64,000 nt of DNA, taken from a virus. Taxonomy: Duplodnaviria; Heunggongvirae; Uroviricota; Caudoviricetes. Positions 30,906 through 63,517 of this stretch are shown one piece after another. The position numbers and the translations under genes were made by a program. Numbering within the stretch: position 1 is the stretch's first letter; each line of letters opens with the position of its first letter. The stretch lies in IMG/VR virus record IMGVR_UViG_2648501802_000002. One strand, written 5' to 3'. A model generated the notes under the pieces. That model had not been told where the DNA came from, searched no databases, and saw only the letters and a program-made list of their open reading frames with translations.

Positions 30906-30959
30906 TGTCAAACAACTATGAAAAACAATCCAGTTTTTGTTTGATATTTATGGTGACAT

Positions 30960-31619: not shown

Positions 31620-32259
31620 ATGTTCATCAGAGCTTATTTAAGGGCATCAACGGAAGATCAGTTTGCCGATCGGGCAAAAGAGATGCTGGGGCAGTTTGTT
31701 CAGGAGCGGGGACATAAAATAGCCAGTTACTACCGGGAGAACATAAGCGGTACAAAACTCGACCGCCGGAACTGGGACGCTTACTGATGGACAGCCACCG
31801 CAATGATATTTTACTGGTCGAGCAAATTGACCGCCTGACCCGTCTGAGTAACAGTGACTGGATTACGCTGAAAAAGCAGATAGAACAACACGAACTGCGG
31901 ATTGTCGCCTGGATGTATCCACCTCATGGCAGGCGCTGTCAGATAAAGACCCTTCGCAGGCTGACCCAATCACCCGCGCCGTGATAACCGCCATCAATAA
32001 CATGCTTATCGACCTGATGGCCGCGATGTCGCATAAGGACTGGCTGAGCCGTCGCCAACGGCAACAACAGGGAATTGAACGGGCTCATACGCTGGGTAAA
32101 TACCGGGGATAACAGGCCGATCAGGAACGGCATCAGAAAGTCCTGTACTACTGGCAGGTCAAGAAACTAAGTATCCATGAAACGGCAGATGCGACAGGGT
32201 ACAGTCCTTCACAGATATGCCGCATTCAAGCCCTTTATAGAGAGCCTGAATCGGAATAA
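31620..32259 (+). pseudogene. serine recombinase (resolvase/invertase family), decayed
   Basis: Starts MFIRAYLRASTEDQ (catalytic Ser motif); two single-base losses in C-runs (about 31762 and 31908) and an in-frame TAA before the C-terminal HTH. Confidence 0.6.
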
Positions 32260-41400: not shown

Positions 41401-43287
41401 TCCGGCAGGAAACGATAGGTGATCCGGCGATAGTACAGGTCCATGTCAGTACATACGCGGTCCATATCCCTGATTATTGAGAAGATCGGACGGGCTTTCT
41501 CGTGCTCAATCACGCCGTCTTCATTGACCGAGGTCATTACGCCATTGTTGGCTTTGGCCGCCGCTTCCGCCTGCTGACGCAATTCTTCATACGCCGCCAG
41601 TTGTTCTTCAGTAAGTGGTGCATCCTGCTGGTGTTCGTCCAGCTCCGGGATCTCCACGGTATCCTTAACGTCTTCCGCCGTTTTAAGCGTTACCCAGCGA
41701 TGGAATATACCGCGCAGCGCATCAACCCGACAATTTCGCTATAGGACCGCGACCAGGATTACCAAAGCGGTCAATCTCTGCCTGCAAACGGGATACCAGA
41801 GAAAGGCGCTGCTGTTCGATTTGTTCAGCACTATGCCCGGCGGCCTTCATATCCTGATATTCAATTAACATCCGGCCAATCATCGCCCCGCGATACAAGC
41901 GTTCACGGTATTTTTCAGGCTGGCTGTTAATCCAGTCCACCAGCTGCACCATATCGTCGCTGATTGATGTGGTGTACTTATCGCGGACATTTGCCATCTG
42001 GGTAAATGTCATGCCGAGACGGCCTTCTGTTGTAGTCAGGTTACGCTGAAGAGCCTCCCAGCTATCCGCGCCATAACTGGCAGCATCGATCTTAAGTTCC
42101 TTCCCGGCATCAGCTTCAATCCAGCGACCACCAGCATATTTTTGCCATACGCCATTAATCAGGCGCATTTCCCCTTCACCAACAACGTCTGCGGTCGGTG
42201 ACGGTTCAGCCATATCGAGCAAAGACCAGTCGATACGGCTTTCGAAACGATGAATCAGCTTCGCTTTAAGAGCCTGGTTATCAATCTGACCGTCGGCACG
42301 AACCTCAATACGCCCCTGGAAGCCCTTTTCCTGGGTGCCATGAACAAACCGGCGGCCATCCTTTTCAAACCACTTGCCAGAAATAAACGTTGGCCAAAGC
42401 ACATTTGCCGATTCAAGAGTGCTTTCATCCACCAGGGGGATTTTCTCAGCCATCTCTGCCGGATGTTTGCGCATCAGCACCACATCAACGACTGTACTGG
42501 TCCCGTTTGCGTCAAAAGTACCGGTAGGCAAGCGGTGAGCGCCAAGAAATTCAGCTTTACGGGATAAGCGCAGGCGTAACCGCTTCATGTTTGAACCTGA
42601 AACAATGGACGGCGGCACAATCACGCACATGAATCCGCCTGGCTTTATCTTGTCCAGCATGCGGAGCATGAAGTAAGAACCCATGTCCGTTTCTTCTGCG
42701 TAAGGCTTATCGATGTTGCGTGTGTTATCACGACCGCCGAACGGAACGTTACCCACAACATGGTCGAATGAATCGTTAGGCGTGCTTATAGCCAGCTGTT
42801 CGAACGGGGAAATCTGTACGCTGTCTTCCGGGTGTAACAACTGGTTTATACGACCGGAAACACTGCTGATCTCAGTCGCGGTCATCACCGTACCAACCGG
42901 TTTTGTCTCATTAAAAACGCCGGTTCCCGCCGATGGTTCCAGAGTGTTACCTACGTCCGCGCCGTAGAGCTTCATGATCTCCCAGACACCTTCAGCGATC
43001 GGCTTTGGTGTGTAATATTCGGAGACGGACCCGCCAATGCCGCCTTCACCGGTGTACCCAGCCAGGATCTGGCGCTGTTCATCTGTCAGTGTCGCGCCGT
43101 CCACCAGCGAATTAAGCAAATCTATCGCCTTCTGATTCGCCTCCCGGCGCAGTCGGTCATAGCTTTTGCCTTCCACCTTTTCCACGCCGTATTTAATCGG
43201 CGCTCGGTGAGATGTTATTGCCCTAATGTATTTCAATATTTCGCTGACACTTGAACAGCAAAACACCCCCATAAATAGCTTGTTCAT
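38468..43287 (-). pseudogene. DarB-like N6-adenine methyltransferase + helicase-C fusion gene, in three ORFs
   Basis: ORF 41722..43287 has methyltransferase motifs (EPSAGTGVF, GNVPFG); ORFs 41058..41657 and 38468..41110 carry helicase C-domain motifs (KQIIFTDE; AQRNGRGAR); junctions at an A7 tract (41101-41107) and a 1-nt shift near 41722-41738. Confidence 0.55.
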
Positions 43288-56771: not shown

Positions 56772-57192
56772 CCTGTGCGAGATTTATTACGTAACTTCTG
56801 CGGATTTGCTGAGTAACAGGGAAAATCCGATACAACGGGTTAATGAACGAGTCGCCATGCGTAACCATGACGTTGAAATGCCACAGTCGCTCTCCTTTAC
56901 CCATATATTCAGTGGGTATGTACAACCATTCACTGTTTTCGCCCTGTTCAGCCGACGTCAGACAACGTTGTTCGCCTTCAATCACTGTCGTCGGCTTCTG
57001 AACATCGCGGATCCAATATCTGACCGTTGCGCCGCGCAAAAACGGGAATTTAGACCGGTATTTGAACGGCACCCGAATGAAACCCGGTTTAATTTCCACA
57101 TCACCAAGTTCTAAATGCGTGATGTCCTTGCGTTTTAGCAAATAGCGATCGGCTAAGGCTAACGCAAGAACGCATACACCCCAGCCAATCAT
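56749..57192 (-). CDS. LydB-like antiholin
   Basis: 147-aa ORF downstream of the holin gene with overlap. Confidence 0.45.
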   Translation of the reverse strand: MIGWGVCVLALALADRYLLKRKDITHLELGDVEIKPGFIRVPFKYRSKFPFLRGATVRYWIRDVQKPTTVIEGEQRCLTSAEQGENSEWLYIPTEYMGKGERLWHFNVMVTHGDSFINPLYRIFPVTQQIRRSYVINLAQDVSDDEK

Positions 57193-57518
57193 TTCCCACC
57201 TCCCTTTTTCACCAAACTTGTAAGAACATTCAGAATGCTATCGATATTCACTCGTTTCATCCCTGAAATCACCTCATGACCGTTATTGCTGGCTATCGTT
57301 ACCATTAAGTACGTAATTGATAACTCCCAGCCTTCGTGTTGCCCCAATAGGTACGCCACCGCGCCAGCTGTCACTGCAACAAAGATCTCCGTAACCAATC
57401 CCAACAAGTTGCCAGACTGGCGACCATCTCGGACATCCATCAGGAACGTGCCTATCCCACCAATTACTGAAAGCAGGAGCGCAATAGCAACTGGAGCTAA
57501 TTCCTGTGTGTCAAGCAC
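57189..57518 (-). CDS. holin (LydA-like)
   Basis: 109-aa ORF with hydrophobic segments; first gene of the leftward lysis/dar operon. Confidence 0.55.
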   Translation of the reverse strand: MLDTQELAPVAIALLLSVIGGIGTFLMDVRDGRQSGNLLGLVTEIFVAVTAGAVAYLLGQHEGWELSITYLMVTIASNNGHEVISGMKRVNIDSILNVLTSLVKKGGGK

Positions 57519-57586
57519 AAGTTCCCTCCTACGTTGTCAGGAGGTAATGGTATGCAAAGTAACTTCTCAACCGGTCATGTTACTTG

Positions 57587-57620
57587 ACATCCTCCACGTC
57601 CTTTAGAGCGTGGAGGATGT
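57587..57620. other. perfect 12-bp stem-loop immediately 5' of the intron-like sequence
   Basis: ACATCCTCCACG (57587-57598), 10-nt loop, CGTGGAGGATGT (57609-57620). Confidence 0.8.
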
Positions 57621-58455
57621 GTGCGCCCAGCATGGGCGCGATCTTGGAGGTGAAAGCCCTCCCGCGAGCTGACCACAGCGAGCGAAAGGAAGTGCAACTG
57701 CGTGAGGGCGGCTAGGCGTGGGGAGGAAGCACGGAATGAACCCGTGAGCCGATGAACAAGAATCGGATATGAGGCGCGATGGAGCAAGGCGAGCAGGCAC
57801 ATCACTGCGAAGCTTTCGTGACAAAGTCGCGTAGATCCGACGGTTGTGCGGGGAAGGATCGCGTTCTTACCTGGGGAGTTCTCGCCTCATGCCTGAAAGG
57901 GCAACGTCGTAAGACGGAGCGAGAAGTCAGCAGAGGCCGTAGTAGTCAGGACTCCGACGAAGGGCCGAACGAGAAGGAAAGCCAAAAGATATGACTCTTG
58001 ACAGGACATTGCGTCAGAAGCCGGGGAAGCCCGGTACGGACCCGCATGCCGGGTGGTGTGGCAGGGGCGCAGCCTTGTGCTCCCCCCTATGCCGATCAAG
58101 CAGAACATTGTGCTGGGCCTCTGACGCATCTCCTTGATGGTCTTGGCATCGTGCTTAAGTGGATTGGTGTCGTCTCTGATAGGCTCATGGAGGCAGAATG
58201 AAACTCAAAAATCCGGGACAGCACGCAAAACAGGCTGCACAAAAAGCGCAGGTTGCGTAGGAGTGGAATCCCGCTCCCAAAAAATGGTGCAGAAGTTGCG
58301 GCAGTGGTCATCCGACGCACTGGAAAATAACAAACCCGCCGTGACCAGAATCGGAGGCCTGAGGGAGTGACCGTAAAACCGGATAACCCAGGCAGCAAAT
58401 ACCCGCTGGATGAGGCATGGTTCCGGCAGATAATACCGAAAACCGCCAGACACAC
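57621..58455 (+). ncRNA. group II intron 5' segment, ORF-less or 3'-truncated
   Basis: Begins GTGCGCCCAG (GUGYG 5' consensus); GC-rich with no long ORF; ends at an abrupt drop to AT-rich sequence; no domain V identified. Confidence 0.55.
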
Positions 58456-58516
58456 TGGATAATCAGTAGAAATAACCCATTAAAATCATTATAATAATTG
58501 GGCACATTATTATATT

Positions 58517-59080
58517 ATGCTGAATAATAGAGACATGAATATTAATGAACTTAAAGACTGTATTCACTATGAAGTAATCGGTAGCGAGCGTCCTTTCTCC
58601 TGGCGAAAGGCAATTGTTCGCGCAATAAAACATAGAAGAGTTCGTTATTTATTTTGGTGGCGCATAGCCAAATACCTTTTTGATAAAGGCGGATACTGTC
58701 GGAAGATTGCGGGGAAAATGGAACGTTTCATTCTTGATAAATATAGTGTAACAGTCCCTTTAACTGTAAATATAGGGAAAGGCTTTGATATTTCTTATCT
58801 CAACGGTGTTGTTATCGGTCACAAAGTAACCATTGGTGAAAATTGTTCAATAAAACCAGGGGTAACTATTGGGCTACGTGGTGATTTTAATGATATGGAT
58901 ATTGTTATAGGACATAATGTGACCATTGGTTGTAATGCCACCATTCTTGGTGGCAAAGTGCGTATAGGAAACAATGTCACAATAGGTGCTCATGCATTGG
59001 TATTGCATGATATTCCTGATGATTCAACATTCATCACTAAATTTCAGTCTGAAGTTATCTGCTCGTCCTCTTGCACATAA
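58517..59080 (+). CDS. hexapeptide-repeat (left-handed beta-helix) acetyltransferase
   Basis: 187-aa ORF with repeats [14 protein letters not shown] / [15 protein letters not shown] / [15 protein letters not shown]; AT-rich; 3' end overlaps the convergent U gene. Confidence 0.65.
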
Positions 59081-59661
59081 CCCTGATTCATCAGCTCTGG
59101 CCATACGATATCCGGAGCTGTACTGGTGTCAATTCGACTCACTAATACTCTGTATTTTCTCCAGGAATCCAGTTGTGAATTTTCCTCGGTTGTTGCTATT
59201 TCAAGATTAACTGCATCCTGCAGAATTGCGATGTTATCTGTTGCCTCCTGAATCAACCTTGCCTTTTTCTCTTCCGCTTCCCGTATCCGAAACAGTTTTT
59301 CTGCTTCCTCATCCTTCACCCAGGATACGCCGTCCCACTTCTGATACTCCCCTGCTGGCGACAACCAGGTGACATTCTCTGGTAACGGTCCGAGTTCAGA
59401 AATAAACAACGCGTCCCCCGATGCCACGTCATAGACCGTTTTACCACGATGGTCTTCAACAATAATCCATGATTCATTTTCACTGTTAAAAACTGCCACA
59501 AAGCCAGCAGGAATTTCCGGTGGGGCGATATCTGTAGAATTAGCTGGTAGCCCTGTATGAGGTGGAATATATGCGTCACCTTCACCAATAAACTCATTAG
59601 TTCCGGCGAGCAGGTTATAAATTTTTACAGTACGTGATTGTTCACTCATTCTGAATGCCAT
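59044..59661 (-). CDS. tail fibre assembly protein (U/Tfa-like)
   Basis: 205-aa ORF directly downstream of the receptor-binding fibre gene with ATGA overlap. Confidence 0.6.
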
Positions 59662-60552
59662 TATGCAAGCCTCACAATATAATTAAATGCGATGTTTTTA
59701 ACGGTGTTTTCCGAGTTACCAGCAGCGTTAACGGTGATGGTGTGTCCATGTGAACCAATCGCAACAGAGTGCGTATGAGCGCCAATATCAACTGTATGTG
59801 CATGCGCCCCTGCACTTGCAGCGGTGCCTGATACTGAGTGGGTGTGTGCACCAGAAGAAGGCACAGTTCCATTCCCCACCACAGTGCCGCTTGATGAGCC
59901 ATCAAGCCAGTCGAAATTCATACCGCCACCATCTGGTCTCCTTAATGGAACGGTATGAGTATGTGCGCCAGCACTATTTGCAGTACCAGATACATTGTGG
60001 GTATGTGCACCTGTGTTATTCGTTGATTTAGTACCGTAATCAAACGAAGATGTGGTTTTCGTACCCAAATCCGTATTGGATGCGCTGGCGCTGTGGGTGT
60101 GCGATTTAATGCCATCCTGTTCCAGAGACAATACGTCCCGACCACTGGCGGGTTTGCCCTTGATTGTCCAGCCACGCATATCCGGGATCACGCCTGACGG
60201 ATAAGCGGCTGCAAGTTTCGGGTATGCAGATTTGTCAAAAGTCTGTCCCTGCATCAGGGCGTAACCAGACGGCACAGTATCTGATGGCCACGGATGCGGA
60301 ACACCAACAGGAAGGACCTCAATATCCCCGGAACCATCAAACGAAACGTTATTAATTTTACGGGCTGTTTTCAGCTTTGTAGCCGTTGAGGCATTGCCGG
60401 ACAGCTCACCAGAAATGCCACCAACAACTGTTAGATCACCAGTTATTGTGCCGCCTGAACTTTCCAGTTTTTTAGCAACATCACTCTTAATAGAGTCGAT
60501 TTCTTTTTTTCAGATTAGTTATATCTGCTGGTATCGTTGTCACTGTTGCCAT
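59661..60552 (-). pseudogene. receptor-binding tail fibre gene with frameshift at an A7 tract
   Basis: AAGGA RBS + ATG at 60552 gives [16 protein letters not shown] then stop; removing one A from the run at 60504-60510 by hand gives a continuous frame of about 297 aa into ORF 59661..60275 (GAHTH repeats). Confidence 0.55.
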
Positions 60553-60725
60553 ATTAATTCCTTACGCCCATTCCCGCAGCGGTTGTTCTAATTGAACTTC
60601 AAAACCATCAAACATTTGTTGTTTCAAACTGTTGTTTAAAATACGAACATTAACGAAGAAGCCATCATTTTTAATCACTGTTGGTTCTTCGTTCTCGCCG
60701 TTTGGTATTTCGGTATATGTAACAC

Positions 60726-62153
60726 CTACAACATCAAGAAGAATGTTGTTTTGCAGCTCTTCATTATCGTGGTGCCGAGTTCTCTTAAACCAAGGTATTG
60801 GATAACAGCAAGGACGCTTGTTTTGGACAGAATATCGCGACCGACTGACGTTAAGTCAGTCTGAGAAACAGTGTCTGTACCGGTAAAGTACGGCAGTTTA
60901 TTTGCGCCTGTAGCAAGACCAGCAAGCGCGGTTAAAGTTGCATCCAGAGGCTGTTTGCCTGCCAGCGCATTTGTCATTGTTGTCGCAAAGTTCGGGTCAT
61001 TACCAAGTGCTGCGGCAAGCTCATTCAGGGTATCAAGAGCTTCTGGTGATGAACCAACCAATGCGGATATGGCAGCTCTTACATAAGCAGTCGTAGCAAT
61101 CTGCGTATTATTTGTGCCCTGCGCAGCCGTAGGCGCAGTAGGGACTCCCGTTAATGCAGGGCTTGCCAAAGGCGCTTTGAGGGCTAGGGCATTGTTGATA
61201 GTTGTGCTGAAATTCGGGTCGTTATTGATCGCAGCAGCTATTTCTTTAAGCGTATCCAGTGTGCCAGGTGCACCGTTGATAAGTGCCGTTATAGCTGACT
61301 TAACAAAGGCTGTATTTGCGATCTGCGTGCTATTTGTACCTTGCGCTGCCGTCGGCGCGGTTGGCGTTCCTGTCAGACTCGGGCTTTCTATTGGCGCTTT
61401 GGTATCAGCAAGACCTTTTACAGACTTAACGGCTTTAGGGGTAGCCGCCATTGTTTCGCTGTCGCTGTTAGTTTCGCTACTGAGCTGAACTAATCCCTTT
61501 TGCGTTGTGCTTGCATCCTGTGCCGTATACTTGCTTTTCGCCAGATCGTAGGCTTTTTTAGCTGCCAGCGAACTTGCAGCAACATCACTTCTGCTACTGG
61601 TTACAGAGTCTGAAATATCAATGCCGATCGTGCGGTTAATACGCTCGGATGTATCAATCATCTCCTGGGTAATGGCTGATACGCCAGCAGGGATATTCAC
61701 CGTACAAACAAGCAGCTCTCCATCTCCTAACTGATATGAATCGGTATAGGTTCTGGCAACAAATTCAGCCGCATGAATATGTGACGCGGTATTAACCTGA
61801 TAGGTATCCTCTCCAAGGAGGTATCTTCCCTTCAGCACAATTGCATATTTCTTGCCTTCACTAAGTGCAAGAGAAATATCCTTACGGTGCCGAATAGTTA
61901 CCTGGTAGAATTCACCAATATCCACTGACGCAGCGCCAGCAGTTTTATCACCATCCACTGAGGTGATTAACAGGTTCATACCACCGCCAGGCTTCGGCAG
62001 GAAACCGGCATAAAACCCAGGATCAACAATTCCCCTGAATTTTCGGTTTAGCGCGGCTGACAGATATGGTTCGTGGTATTGCACATCAGCCACCAGAGCC
62101 AGTGACTCGGGCGATGGGTAAGTAACTGATGTAACAACTGTAACGTCATTCAT
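60726..62153 (-). CDS. tail fibre protein, constant N-terminal part
   Basis: Start at MNDVTVV (62153, AAGGA RBS); Ala/Thr-rich repeats; ends 16 codons after the cix-like site with ...VIQYLGLRELG. Confidence 0.55.
   Translation of the reverse strand: MNDVTVVTSVTYPSPESLALVADVQYHEPYLSAALNRKFRGIVDPGFYAGFLPKPGGGMNLLITSVDGDKTAGAASVDIGEFYQVTIRHRKDISLALSEGKKYAIVLKGRYLLGEDTYQVNTASHIHAAEFVARTYTDSYQLGDGELLVCTVNIPAGVSAITQEMIDTSERINRTIGIDISDSVTSSRSDVAASSLAAKKAYDLAKSKYTAQDASTTQKGLVQLSSETNSDSETMAATPKAVKSVKGLADTKAPIESPSLTGTPTAPTAAQGTNSTQIANTAFVKSAITALINGAPGTLDTLKEIAAAINNDPNFSTTINNALALKAPLASPALTGVPTAPTAAQGTNNTQIATTAYVRAAISALVGSSPEALDTLNELAAALGNDPNFATTMTNALAGKQPLDATLTALAGLATGANKLPYFTGTDTVSQTDLTSVGRDILSKTSVLAVIQYLGLRELGTTIMKSCKTTFFLML
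60780..60805 (-). other. cix/hix/gix-like recombination site
   Basis: TTCTCTTAAACCAAGGTATTGGATAA: 12-bp inverted half-sites around an AA core, close to hixL TTCTTGAAAACCAAGGTTTTTGATAA. Confidence 0.6.
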
Positions 62154-62164
62154 CAAGCATATCC

Positions 62165-62599
62165 TTATGCTATAGTCGTGTTGATGGCCATAACTGCGGT
62201 ATATGTTTTTCCCACATACAGCGAGTCTTCCTGAACACAAATAATTGCGATGGGCTTATTCTCGTTATCCAGAACAACCAGAGTGTTGAATGGATAGTTT
62301 TTCCCTTCCTGCAACTGGCTTTGATCAAGGTCCATTCGGACAGTAATTATCCCGCCAGAGTAGGTTGGGACGAGGTTGATGGTGCAAAATTGACTGGTCA
62401 GTTCTGCCAACTCGAAAGTCTTTGGCAGTTCTCCAATGTCATAAGTACCATCTTCATTTTTGGTAACCAGCGAACTGGTGCCGAAAACGGCCTTGCTGAT
62501 TAAAAATCGAGAGCCTTTGTTAATGGACGATTCAGCGCGTCGCTGATAGTAATAATCCAACAACTGACTCTTATAGAGATTTGTTGAGACGTCAGACAT
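62165..62599 (-). CDS. tail fibre/baseplate-associated protein (R position)
   Basis: 144-aa ORF immediately upstream of the tail fibre gene. Confidence 0.4.
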   Translation of the reverse strand: MSDVSTNLYKSQLLDYYYQRRAESSINKGSRFLISKAVFGTSSLVTKNEDGTYDIGELPKTFELAELTSQFCTINLVPTYSGGIITVRMDLDQSQLQEGKNYPFNTLVVLDNENKPIAIICVQEDSLYVGKTYTAVMAINTTIA

Positions 62600-62677
62600 G
62601 ATTTTCCCTAATCAATGTTGTGAAGCCTCATTGTAAGAGAAGTAACTTGTCACCCCGCCCTGCGGACGGGGTAATTG

Positions 62678-63517
62678 TCAGGCATCGCTATCCAGCAGCA
62701 AATCATCTGCGCGGGAGCGATCAAACGTAGGCGTTGCTTTCACAATAGTGCCGCCCGGCGTTGCAGTGATCGGGGCACTAATCGACGTAACTCCGGCAAG
62801 CGAAGTTGTATCCGAAGTTTCAAACCAGCAGTACGCTTTTTCGGTATCAGAAATCTCGTTCAAAGTGATCATGTCGGCCTGTTCATTTACAACAACCGAC
62901 AAATAGAGCGTAAGCCCATCAAACACTATATGCAGTGGCAGTAGAGGCTTTACGAACTGATTAAACTTTCTGAGAATTTCTTCTGTAATTGCGGACTGAT
63001 CTATCGTGCCAGTAATACCCATTGTCCTGGCCAGGTCGTTTATGGGAATACTGATCATCCCTCTGGAAGTCAGAAACATCTCGCCGAATGTGCCGCCAGT
63101 AGTCTCCAGTGTGCTTTCTGGTATTAGAACTGTGCCATAGGGATGACGCTCAAGGTCCACCGGTGCATATATCGGATCCCATAAAACAGAAATACCGTTA
63201 AATTCGCGGTAAATTGTCTGGTTTATAGGACGTTCAGTTCCCTTAAAGTGGATCTCATCAAGCCGCTGTTGTAACAACATCGGAACGGAAGATGAGTTCG
63301 AGGTTCTGATAGTAAAGAACTGGCCAAGTTCATTTGTCCTGGTCTCCAGATCCTCCTTGCTCATGGAGAAAATAGACTTCCGGTTGGTAATTCGCTCCAA
63401 CCATGGGTCAACAAAGGTGTCCATCATTGACTGAACCAAATCAGCCAATGATTTATAGAGCAATGACTTTTGCTTAGCTGATGTAAGCCGGTTATTAAAC
63501 CAGGAACGCTGCATCAC
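62678..63517 (-). CDS. baseplate protein (gene 16 position)
   Basis: 279-aa ORF in the same block. Confidence 0.35.
   Translation of the reverse strand: MMQRSWFNNRLTSAKQKSLLYKSLADLVQSMMDTFVDPWLERITNRKSIFSMSKEDLETRTNELGQFFTIRTSNSSSVPMLLQQRLDEIHFKGTERPINQTIYREFNGISVLWDPIYAPVDLERHPYGTVLIPESTLETTGGTFGEMFLTSRGMISIPINDLARTMGITGTIDQSAITEEILRKFNQFVKPLLPLHIVFDGLTLYLSVVVNEQADMITLNEISDTEKAYCWFETSDTTSLAGVTSISAPITATPGGTIVKATPTFDRSRADDLLLDSDA

Follow-up and report, generated by a model that had tools for sequence, protein, structure and literature searches.

A solitary cixR site in the tail-fibre operon of a P1-like plasmid prophage: a locked relic of a Cin-invertible segment, with two lesions that most likely stem from sequencing or the laboratory

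Why should a tail-fibre operon carry one crossover site of a DNA inversion switch, inside a fibre gene that stops shortly beyond it, followed by a second fibre gene broken by a frameshift? An earlier note on this sequence had read the arrangement either as a locked or decaying invertible segment or as a slippage-prone switch for fibre expression. Here we address the question in the window, by which we mean the whole stretch of DNA analysed (64,000 nucleotides), using P1, related plasmids and phages, and the assembly of the parent strain.

Organization of the operon

In a P1-like plasmid prophage, this region makes up the late tail-fibre operon (R, S, orf92, the second fibre gene and tfa), with the following features.

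62630–62662, minus strand: late promoter region of P1 type (LPs), which lies upstream of R and drives the R-S-...-tfa operon; its direct repeat D3 pairs with the LPdar region at 57547–57579, and the P1 annotation has LPs and LPdar at the corresponding places.
62165–62599, minus strand: gene R, an ORF of 144 aa, tail-fibre structural or assembly protein by P1 annotation; R-S shares 94–96% nucleotide identity with P1/P7.
60726–62153, minus strand: truncated S, an ORF of 475 aa in which P1 Sc (the constant part) runs on for 15 codons into the orf92 remnant, out of frame, before a stop; labelled 'missing C-terminus' by PGAP in CP007393, with S of the parent at 966 aa.
60780–60805, minus strand: solo cixR crossover site, in codons VIQYLGLRE.
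60772–60776, minus strand: GGCAC microhomology at the junction (60772/60771) of a 1,587-bp deletion, identified by comparison with the parent assembly.
60562–60771, minus strand: 3' remnant of orf92 (codons 24–92 and stop), a conserved 92-aa phage protein (phrog_1361) with no assigned function.
59661–60552, minus strand: second tail-fibre gene, with an RBS and an ATG of its own; 296 aa if the A run is A6 and frameshifted in this assembly; Collar domain and HxH Phage_fiber repeats.
60504–60510, minus strand: A7 homopolymer, A6 in the parent and in pPSS-10_3.
59044–59661, minus strand: Tfa tail-fibre assembly chaperone, 205 aa, Caudo_TAP.
58517–59080, plus strand: hexapeptide-repeat acetyltransferase, convergent with tfa, whose 3' end it overlaps.
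57579–58516, no strand: non-coding spacer in place of P1 lydC-cin-cixL, with a 5' group II intron fragment at 57702–57965 (plus strand).

Together with the upstream R, Sc has 94.5–96.4% nucleotide identity over 1,529–1,531 bp to P1, P7 and Ro157c2YLVW, and a Phage_fiber_2 repeat is present in this constant part of S. The acetyltransferase accompanies the same stf-tfa module in other P1-like elements, JL22 having the same arrangement (PMC9603915). Promoter and terminator scans gave counts not above those in shuffled sequence.

A P1-identical cixR site without partner or invertase

The 26-mer TTATCCAATACCTTGGTTTAAGAGAA at 60780–60805 on the minus strand, which the earlier note had singled out as crossover-like, proved identical at 26/26 positions to P1 cixR, as defined by the crossover annotated in AF234172. 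A search allowing ≤3 mismatches gives this single occurrence in the window, where shuffled sequences predict 0, and the site sits at the joint between the constant and variable parts of the tail-fibre gene, in the S codons VIQYLGLRELG.

The claimed absence of a second inverted site and of an invertase gene was borne out. A mismatch search and a half-site scoring scan of the 64-kb window yielded no partner cix site (a single site at ≥16/20); in P1 and two cin-retaining relatives (L008, L009), the same half-site scan did pick up cixL as well as cixR. No Cin homologue was detected, the best tblastn match of P1 Cin to the window having E = 1.4, and blastn of P1 lydB-to-cixR DNA against the window found none of cin, Sv', U' and U. 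Nor did the window match the recombinational enhancer, which P1 annotation places within cin at 31678–31749. Between 57579 and 60780 the plus strand is free of Sv', U' and a second tfa; L008 and L009 do have both an alternative fibre C-terminus and chaperone genes in the opposite orientation. The inverted repeats in 57000–62700 are short chance pairs only. The sole Resolvase-domain sequence in the window is a fragmented non-Cin resolvase-family pseudogene at 31620–32112, ~29 kb away.

Homology to P1 is limited by 57578 (lydA side) and 60770, and its end at 57578 implies that lydC, cin and cixL are gone. Set beside invertible segments of the Cin/Hin/Gin/Pin type, the locus retains only a crossover site at the fibre joint; the invertase, a pair of inverted sites, the opposite arm and the enhancer are missing. 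With lydC, cin, cixL and the opposite arm lost, the operon is frozen in one orientation. The exact cixR and the cin-bearing relatives with the same arm support descent of the locus from a Cin-invertible P1 C segment that is now locked, and this half of the earlier interpretation stands. Given that there is no partner site and no invertase, the surviving cixR probably has no recombination function, and it may be retained only through coding for the conserved Sc/Sv joint VIQYLGLRELG.

Among the relatives, p2022H047-2 and pCUVET19-970.2 have cin and both cix sites, with the same arm inside the invertible segment; the arm common to cin-retaining relatives comprises Sv with a LamG tip, orf92, a second fibre gene that starts at an ATG of its own, and tfa. 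Stumps of cin or U' survive in pPSS-10_3, which retains 79 aa of cin, and in Ro157c2YLVW. The stretch lydC-cin-Sv'-U'-U-S is a hypervariable region of P1-like plasmids, with cin often truncated and no complete C segment (PMC6906374; PMC9603915), and loss of cin and of the complete C segment in P1-like phage-plasmids, fixing the host range, is already documented.

Source assembly and its parent

A comparison over 13.4 kb shows the window to be byte-identical to CP007393 (E. coli ST2747-A). According to the source paper of that record, ST2747-A is a nitrofurantoin-resistant derivative made in vitro, sequencing was by PacBio RS II C2 at ~28× with HGAP assembly, and the 'chromosome' consists of ~14 scaffolds concatenated into one. 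CP007393 is hence an early low-coverage PacBio record, with the plasmid contig stitched into the chromosome. The parent strain assembly, CP007392, served as the reference for strain-level differences, and the lesions were compared at the level of the assemblies. CP007394, the third strain of the set and also a derivative, has no match at ≥99% identity to the tail-fibre locus and provides no corroboration.

Across the ~108 kb compared, CP007392 and CP007393 show 10 homopolymer-length differences and 0 substitutions. Six of these differences fall within the P1-like element (59 kb) and 4 in the adjoining chromosome (48.7 kb), in each case with 0 substitutions, at a rate of ~1 indel per 10–12 kb and in both directions. 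Open reading frames in the window are broken by 4 of the 6 indels in the P1-like element; the darB reading frame runs to 893 codons in the window and 2,258 in the parent. In the compared chromosome stretch, each assembly has its own set of genes that PGAP calls 'frameshifted'. The P1-like element additionally has three deletions of 1.6–1.9 kb relative to the parent, in S/orf92, darB and cre-loxP, and the adjoining 48.7 kb of chromosome has none of that kind. The darB deletion junction lies at ~41711–41725 and that of cre-loxP at 30939/30940.

A microhomology deletion truncates S

The constant part had been described as ending just after the crossover site. This holds for the present copy, in which the S frame past the cixR codons reads TTIMKSCKTTFFLML and then stops, the ORF ending at 60726, but not as a natural design. 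Parent CP007392 has 1,587 bp extra at 60772/60771, which gives an intact 966-aa S and the 92-aa gene between flanks that are 100% identical, and the undeleted arrangement is carried by 19 E. coli genomes. S seems to end 16 codons past the site because the whole of Sv went with the deletion, along with codons 1–23 of orf92.

The deletion runs between two GGCAC pentamers, and its junction falls 3–8 bp beyond the intact 26-bp site. Cin cuts at the central dinucleotide, where serine invertases exchange strands, and the survival of the whole cix site therefore indicates that the deletion is not a Cin product. A Cin-mediated deletion was rejected on two grounds: a junction outside the intact site, and a distal end that shows no resemblance to cix. 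Proximity of the endpoint to the site could still recommend an aberrant reaction of a Cin/Pin-type invertase acting in trans, perhaps from another prophage, on cixR and a direct-orientation pseudo-site. However, exchange would be expected at the central dinucleotide, yet all 26 bp and 3–8 more were kept; moreover, a scan of the parent locus found cixR only, leaving the distal endpoint without a cix-like sequence, and the window contains no invertase. We find such a reaction scarcely credible. The deletion is a microhomology deletion rather than site-specific recombination, and its cause would be either a real lesion from nitrofurantoin selection in the laboratory or an assembly fault.

The A7 run in the second fibre gene

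The frameshift had been described accurately. The ATG at 60552 is preceded by AAGGA, its frame stops after 21 codons, and removal of one A from the run at 60504–60510 yields a 296-aa ORF ending at 59661. In the parent the run is A6, giving an intact 296-aa second-fibre gene. Likewise, pPSS-10_3, at ~90% nucleotide identity, has A6, keeps the ATG and RBS, and has an intact frame; codons 1–50 are read through in frame in 13/13 plasmid tblastn records with the second-fibre N-terminus, and L008 and L014 carry the gene as an annotated, intact CDS. With dN/dS = 0.135 overall and 0.14 over the first 60 codons, the ORF is under purifying selection.

These comparisons leave little of the earlier proposal that the A run acts as a slipped-strand or transcriptional-slippage switch turning the second fibre gene on and off. 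Such a switch could account for sister assemblies that are one A apart at exactly this run, and the tract does lie early in the gene, at codons 15–17. A slipped-strand tract should, however, vary among relatives and toggle the frame beyond what control tracts do, whereas every intact relative has only 6 As, which specify the Lys-Lys conserved in DITNLKK, an invariant N-terminal motif, and 9 further homopolymers, in unrelated genes, differ likewise between the same two assemblies. The frame is also under purifying selection, and the A7 frame needs a +1 shift for restoration where no relative needs any. We regard a slippage switch as highly improbable. A programmed frameshift was rejected on the same ground of intact frames in relatives and a +1 requirement in the A7 copy.

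Homopolymer-only differences without substitutions between the assemblies point instead to a consensus error. Most probably, A7 is an error of the consensus at a homopolymer, of the kind given by early PacBio data at low coverage, and the true second-fibre gene would have A6 and encode a 296-aa fibre protein.

Origin of the locus and of its lesions

Taken together, the locus is best explained in three layers, an account to which we assign a probability of about 0.8 as a whole: the relic of a Cin-invertible segment, a strain-level microhomology deletion and an A7 consensus error. In the evolutionary layer, an ancestor had a Cin-invertible C segment with one arm made up of LamG-tipped Sv, orf92, a separately translated second fibre and Tfa. 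The lineage then lost lydC, cin, cixL and the opposite arm, whose place the acetyltransferase gene and the spacer with the group II intron fragment now fill. In the second layer, the 1,587 bp between two GGCAC pentamers are missing relative to the parent assembly, a difference whose cause is presumably one of the two named above. In the third, A7 would be a probable homopolymer consensus error over a true run of A6. The truncated S and the frameshift are thus most likely sequencing errors or recent laboratory lesions and not a regulatory device.

Several observations weigh against this account. Were its endpoints random, the deletion would hardly be expected to have its left end as close as 3–8 bp to the cix site. 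On the P1-like element the three deletions are clustered, with none in the adjoining 48.7 kb of chromosome, which suggests something specific to the plasmid, be it genuine decay, a mixed population or low coverage of the plasmid. Sister isolates that differ as A6 and A7 would also be expected if the tract were truly prone to slippage.

Nitrofurantoin is a DNA-damaging, mutagenic drug, and both lesions may be genuine: three platings on it could have produced the microhomology deletions in S/orf92, darB and cre-loxP and a +1 slip in the A6 run, leaving the ST2747-A prophage fibre-less and decaying. The history of selection under a mutagen, the clean 5-bp junction typical of in vivo illegitimate recombination, and the distribution of the deletions, three on the plasmid and 0 in 48.7 kb of chromosome, are all in keeping with this. 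On the other hand, A7 fits the assembly-wide homopolymer-only pattern of ~1 per 10–12 kb, there is no evident selective reason to lose the tail fibre, darB or cre under nitrofurantoin, and CP007394, having no ≥99% match to the locus, lends no corroboration. We consider genuine lesions possible if doubtful, and it is unlikely that the fibre tip, part of darB and cre-loxP were really lost by microhomology deletions and the A run shifted within three nitrofurantoin passages. Were that so, it would represent unusually fast reductive plasmid decay or a damage hot spot beside cixR. The value of the locus is mainly cautionary, as both seemingly meaningful gene disruptions vanish against the parent strain assembly.

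A recurrent four-gene fibre cassette

One modestly useful by-product is a cassette of four genes (for a LamG-tipped fibre, a 92-aa protein, a second fibre whose N-terminal motif is almost invariant, and Tfa), which is shared by P1-like plasmids, P2-like phage-plasmids of 48 kb and lytic Warwickvirus phages. The N-terminal 15 residues of the second fibre are almost invariant (13/15) across P1-like plasmids and Warwickvirus phages, and the proteins differ in their C-termini (296, 353, 365, 224 and 235 aa). For the 79-aa N-terminus, a word-indexed protein search gave just 6 fragments, and tblastn against plasmids and phages was more useful. Some P1-like plasmids have the cassette as one of the two arms of a working Cin switch. 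Without the damage, the locus would code for a portable fibre of two proteins (LamG-tipped S, orf92 and a putative docking second fibre) that would be under Cin control in some P1-like phages.

Comparison with known systems

The comparison with P1 proposed in the earlier note places the locus beside the Cin-cix C segment, to which P7, Mu G/Gin, e14 P/Pin and p15B Min also belong in kind. It resembles the P1 segment in Sc (94–96% nucleotide identity to P1/P7), in the identical cixR 26-mer at the same Sc/Sv codons, and in its neighbours, with R upstream and lydA-lydB-hdf-darA beyond; close relatives keep cin, cixL and cixR. It differs in having no cin (and hence no enhancer), no cixL and no inverted Sv'/U' arm, and in place of P1 Sv/U its variable arm carries Sv with a LamG tip, orf92, a second fibre gene that is separate, and a Tfa of lambda type.

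A parallel in fate is offered by P1-like phage-plasmids with degenerate switches (pSvP1, pTZ20_1P, pJIE250-3, JL22, Ro157c2YLVW, pPSS-10_3), in which the cin/C-segment region is likewise truncated or replaced and the fibre fixed (PMC6906374; PMC9603915). JL22 and Ro157c2YLVW share the same stf-type tip, tfa and serine acetyltransferase with this locus. Unlike these relatives, the present copy is also missing Sv together with the 5' portion of orf92, and its second fibre gene carries the +1.

The cassette also recalls two-protein branched lateral fibres (DT57C LtfA/LtfB, phiEco32 gp14/gp15). No sequence similarity to T5-like phages such as DT57C was detected, none of them being among the phage tblastn hits. 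As in those systems, a second fibre gene lies directly downstream, with a short, conserved N-terminal segment and a C-terminal receptor-binding part swapped between phages; in contrast to them, an extra conserved 92-aa gene stands between the two fibre genes here. By sequence, the conserved N-terminal module and variable C-terminal tips are those expected of an LtfA/LtfB-like arrangement.

Source genome and layout of the tail-fibre locus

E. coli ST2747 record CP007393 matches this region at 100% identity; it represents the aerobic nitrofurantoin-resistant derivative ST2747-A (4,998,910 bp), and CP007392 (5,054,509 bp) corresponds to the parent. The ST2747 deposit comprises three genomes, those of the parent and of two derivatives that were rendered nitrofurantoin-resistant in vitro in three stepwise platings, with chromosome sizes given as 5,054,424 bp for the parent and 4,998,910 and 5,090,326 bp for the derivatives (PMC3983296). 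They were sequenced on PacBio RS II (C2 chemistry, ~28×) and assembled with HGAP, and ~14 scaffolds per strain were ordered via an optical map into one 'gapless chromosome' (PMC3983296), a procedure that accounts for the presence of a P1-like plasmid prophage within a chromosome record, beside the Rac prophage. Just outside the window (L003, the CP007393 locus, 1-1091; CP007393 2138735-2139825), the P1-like element adjoins two truncated genes, a Rac-prophage tail-fibre gene and a P1 morphogenetic gene, an arrangement in better agreement with scaffold concatenation than with true integration.

Features of the fibre locus (window coordinates)
From 62662 downward, minus strand: P1-type late promoter region
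62599-62165, minus strand: R
62153 (start) to 60726 (stop), minus strand: tail-fibre gene S, stopping 15 codons past codons VIQYLGLRELG
60805-60780, minus strand: 26-mer TTATCCAATACCTTGGTTTAAGAGAA, inside S codons VIQYLGLRELG
60552 (ATG), minus strand: second fibre gene with AAGGA ribosome-binding site, long frame to 59661
60510-60504, minus strand: A7 run, ending the second-fibre frame after 21 codons
59661-59044, minus strand: Tfa, 205 aa
58517-59080, plus strand: hexapeptide acetyltransferase

The features that the earlier note described at 59661-60805 are all correctly read from the sequence. At their 3' ends the convergent tfa and acetyltransferase genes share 37 bp (59044-59080), and the 205-aa Tfa is 13 residues longer at its C-terminus than its 192-aa counterpart in the P1-like relative pPSS-10_3.

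The A7 frameshift

A sequencing artefact most probably accounts for the frameshift at the A7 run. The parent has A6 at this position, and there the same ATG opens an uninterrupted 296-aa ORF. Over the ~59 kb of the window alignable to the parent we found no substitutions, the only small differences being six single-base changes in homopolymer length (60504-60510, 50555, 41107, 15565, 13752 and 6387), four of which break a longer ORF in the window version; the darB reading frame spans 893 codons in the window versus 2,258 in the parent. In 48.7 kb of the adjacent chromosome, four homopolymer indels are the only differences between the assemblies, and the genes that PGAP labels 'frameshifted' form a separate set in each assembly. 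Homopolymer-only differences of this kind are the hallmark of consensus errors in early PacBio data at low coverage.

Comparison with relatives indicates that the intended gene is the A6 form: pPSS-10_3 has A6 with the same ribosome-binding site and ATG at ~90% nucleotide identity, all 13 plasmid records encoding the second-fibre N-terminus read through codons 1-50, and the parent/pPSS-10_3 pair gives a dN/dS of 0.135 over the whole ORF and 0.14 over the first 60 codons. The slippage-prone switch proposed earlier is not supported, the lesion being absent from the parent assembly, and a true switch at the A run is highly improbable.

A 1,587-bp deletion relative to the parent truncates S

Apart from A7/A6, the two assemblies are identical across the locus but for 1,587 bp, which are present in the parent between 60772 and 60771 (window numbering). 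Including this stretch, the parental S encodes an intact 966-aa protein in which the constant part (Sc) leads into a variable part with a concanavalin/LamG-like domain at its end, and a complete 92-aa gene (orf92) follows. The constant part therefore does not naturally end just after the site, as the earlier note had it; in the window, S continues for 15 codons within the remnant of orf92 before its stop, because the deleted length is divisible by 3 but orf92 is read in a different frame.

Serine invertases exchange strands at the central dinucleotide of their site. The window junction leaves the cix site complete, with 3-8 bp beyond it, which leads us to reject a deletion made by Cin; both ends of the missing stretch read GGCAC in the parent, with one copy kept in the window (60776-60772). 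Judging from this junction, the 1,587-bp loss is a microhomology deletion.

The deletion is either a laboratory lesion or an assembly fault. A real event would fit the clean microhomology, the two further 1.6-1.9 kb deletions in the same element, in darB and in cre plus loxP, and the absence of such deletions from the 48.7 kb of neighbouring chromosome (CP007393 vs parent). An artefact or a mixed population would fit the poor assembly quality, the special handling of the plasmid contig and the lack of an evident selective reason for the loss. Either way, the deletion is confined to this single laboratory derivative and does not belong to the phage's own design. Relative to the parent, the darB deletion (~1.93 kb, window ~41711-41725) lies between imperfect 13-15-bp repeats, and the cre plus loxP deletion removes 1,606 bp at 30939|30940, leaving loxP in the parent only.

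A solo cixR without its inversion switch

The 26-mer is identical at 26/26 positions to P1 cixR (crossover coordinates annotated in P1, AF234172) and occurs once in the window at ≤3 mismatches, with 0 expected by chance, while the S constant part shares 94.5-96.4% nucleotide identity with P1, P7 and other Punavirus records. No Cin homolog was found in the window (best tblastn E for P1 Cin, 1.4), and blastn of the P1 lydB-to-cixR DNA matched only lydB-lydA, where the homology ends at 57578, and the ~40 bp surrounding the site. A half-site scoring scan found one site each in the window, the parent locus, pPSS-10_3, phi456 and Ro157c2YLVW, and two inverted sites in P1 and in two cin-retaining plasmids. 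The window site is thus a solo cixR lacking invertase, enhancer, cixL and the opposite arm. The fossil or locked inversion module of the earlier note accordingly holds as history (exact cixR, no Cin, no partner site), though not as a place where the constant part ends. In the cin-less phage Ro157c2YLVW, the solo cixR core (L001 4496) has changed from TTGGTTT to TTGATTT, replacing Gly with Asp in LGLRE, which shows that the relic site can drift after the switch is lost.

Where P1 has lydC-cin-cixL, the window has a ~940-bp spacer holding a 5' group II intron fragment. This non-coding spacer (57579-58516) carries intron motifs at 57702-57965 (plus strand; group II D1-D4 only; RF02001, 95.5 bits; RF01998, 46.8 bits), has no reverse-transcriptase ORF or D5/D6, and recurs unannotated in ~31 E. 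coli genomes, mostly on P1-like plasmids. A serine-recombinase pseudogene at 31620-32112 (plus strand; Resolvase N-terminal domain, E=3.8e-16), split over three frames, is unrelated to Cin; the parent annotation likewise marks it 'frameshifted; internal stop', and some of its breaks could be homopolymer errors.

Surveys of P1-like phage-plasmids describe lydC-cin-Sv'-U'-U-S as a hypervariable region; there are elements in which cin is truncated, no C segment is complete and the host range is presumably fixed (PMC6906374), and a module of tfa and serine acetyltransferase can take its place (PMC9603915). Such an evolutionary fossil is thus of a known kind.

The undamaged fibre cassette

Plasmids p2022H047-2 and pCUVET19-970.2 retain cin, cixL and cixR, with the invertible segment in opposite orientations. 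One arm in both is the arrangement frozen in ST2747, namely a variable part (Sv) with LamG-like tip, orf92, the second fibre gene (353 or 365 aa, with differing tips) and tfa; the other holds a long Sv' and its own tfa. Between p2022H047-2 (L008 8094-10876) and pCUVET19-970.2 (L009 7176-9958), whose Cin systems work, the whole C segment is inverted at cix sites, and an inner block of two fibre tips and two tfa genes is inverted again at ~250-bp inverted repeats that contain no cix-like site, a second, nested level of fibre-tip shuffling that presumably proceeds by homologous recombination.

A portable cassette of LamG-tipped fibre, 92-aa protein (phrog_1361) and second fibre, with or without Tfa, is common to P1-like plasmids, 48-kb P2-like phage-plasmids and lytic Warwickvirus phages.

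Portable cassette loci
L004 (parent locus) 7414-10727
L014 3755-7990
L012 and L013 1216-4202

The 48-kb elements carry it without any invertase, their second gene annotated as an intact CDS. Warwickvirus phages have a three-gene version with orf92 ~50% identical, and a T5-like Salmonella phage has orf92 alone. The AlphaFold2 model of the 92-aa protein (pLDDT 85.7) gave no informative PDB fold match.

In Ro157c2YLVW, a related tip (~84-93% identical) is instead fused straight to Sc as a single 949-aa S, suggesting that the LamG/orf92/N-terminus block was inserted at a shared GNA(S/D)TATKLKTAR motif. The second-fibre N-terminus (consensus MATVTxIPxDITNLK) is almost invariant over 15 residues (13/15) in the third Warwickvirus protein. 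By analogy with LtfA/LtfB of DT57C, where the first protein is thought to be the docking site for a conserved N-terminal stretch of the second (PMC4728585), we infer that the 296-aa protein is probably a separately translated second fibre component; the Tfa encoded downstream would fold its HxH-repeat tip.
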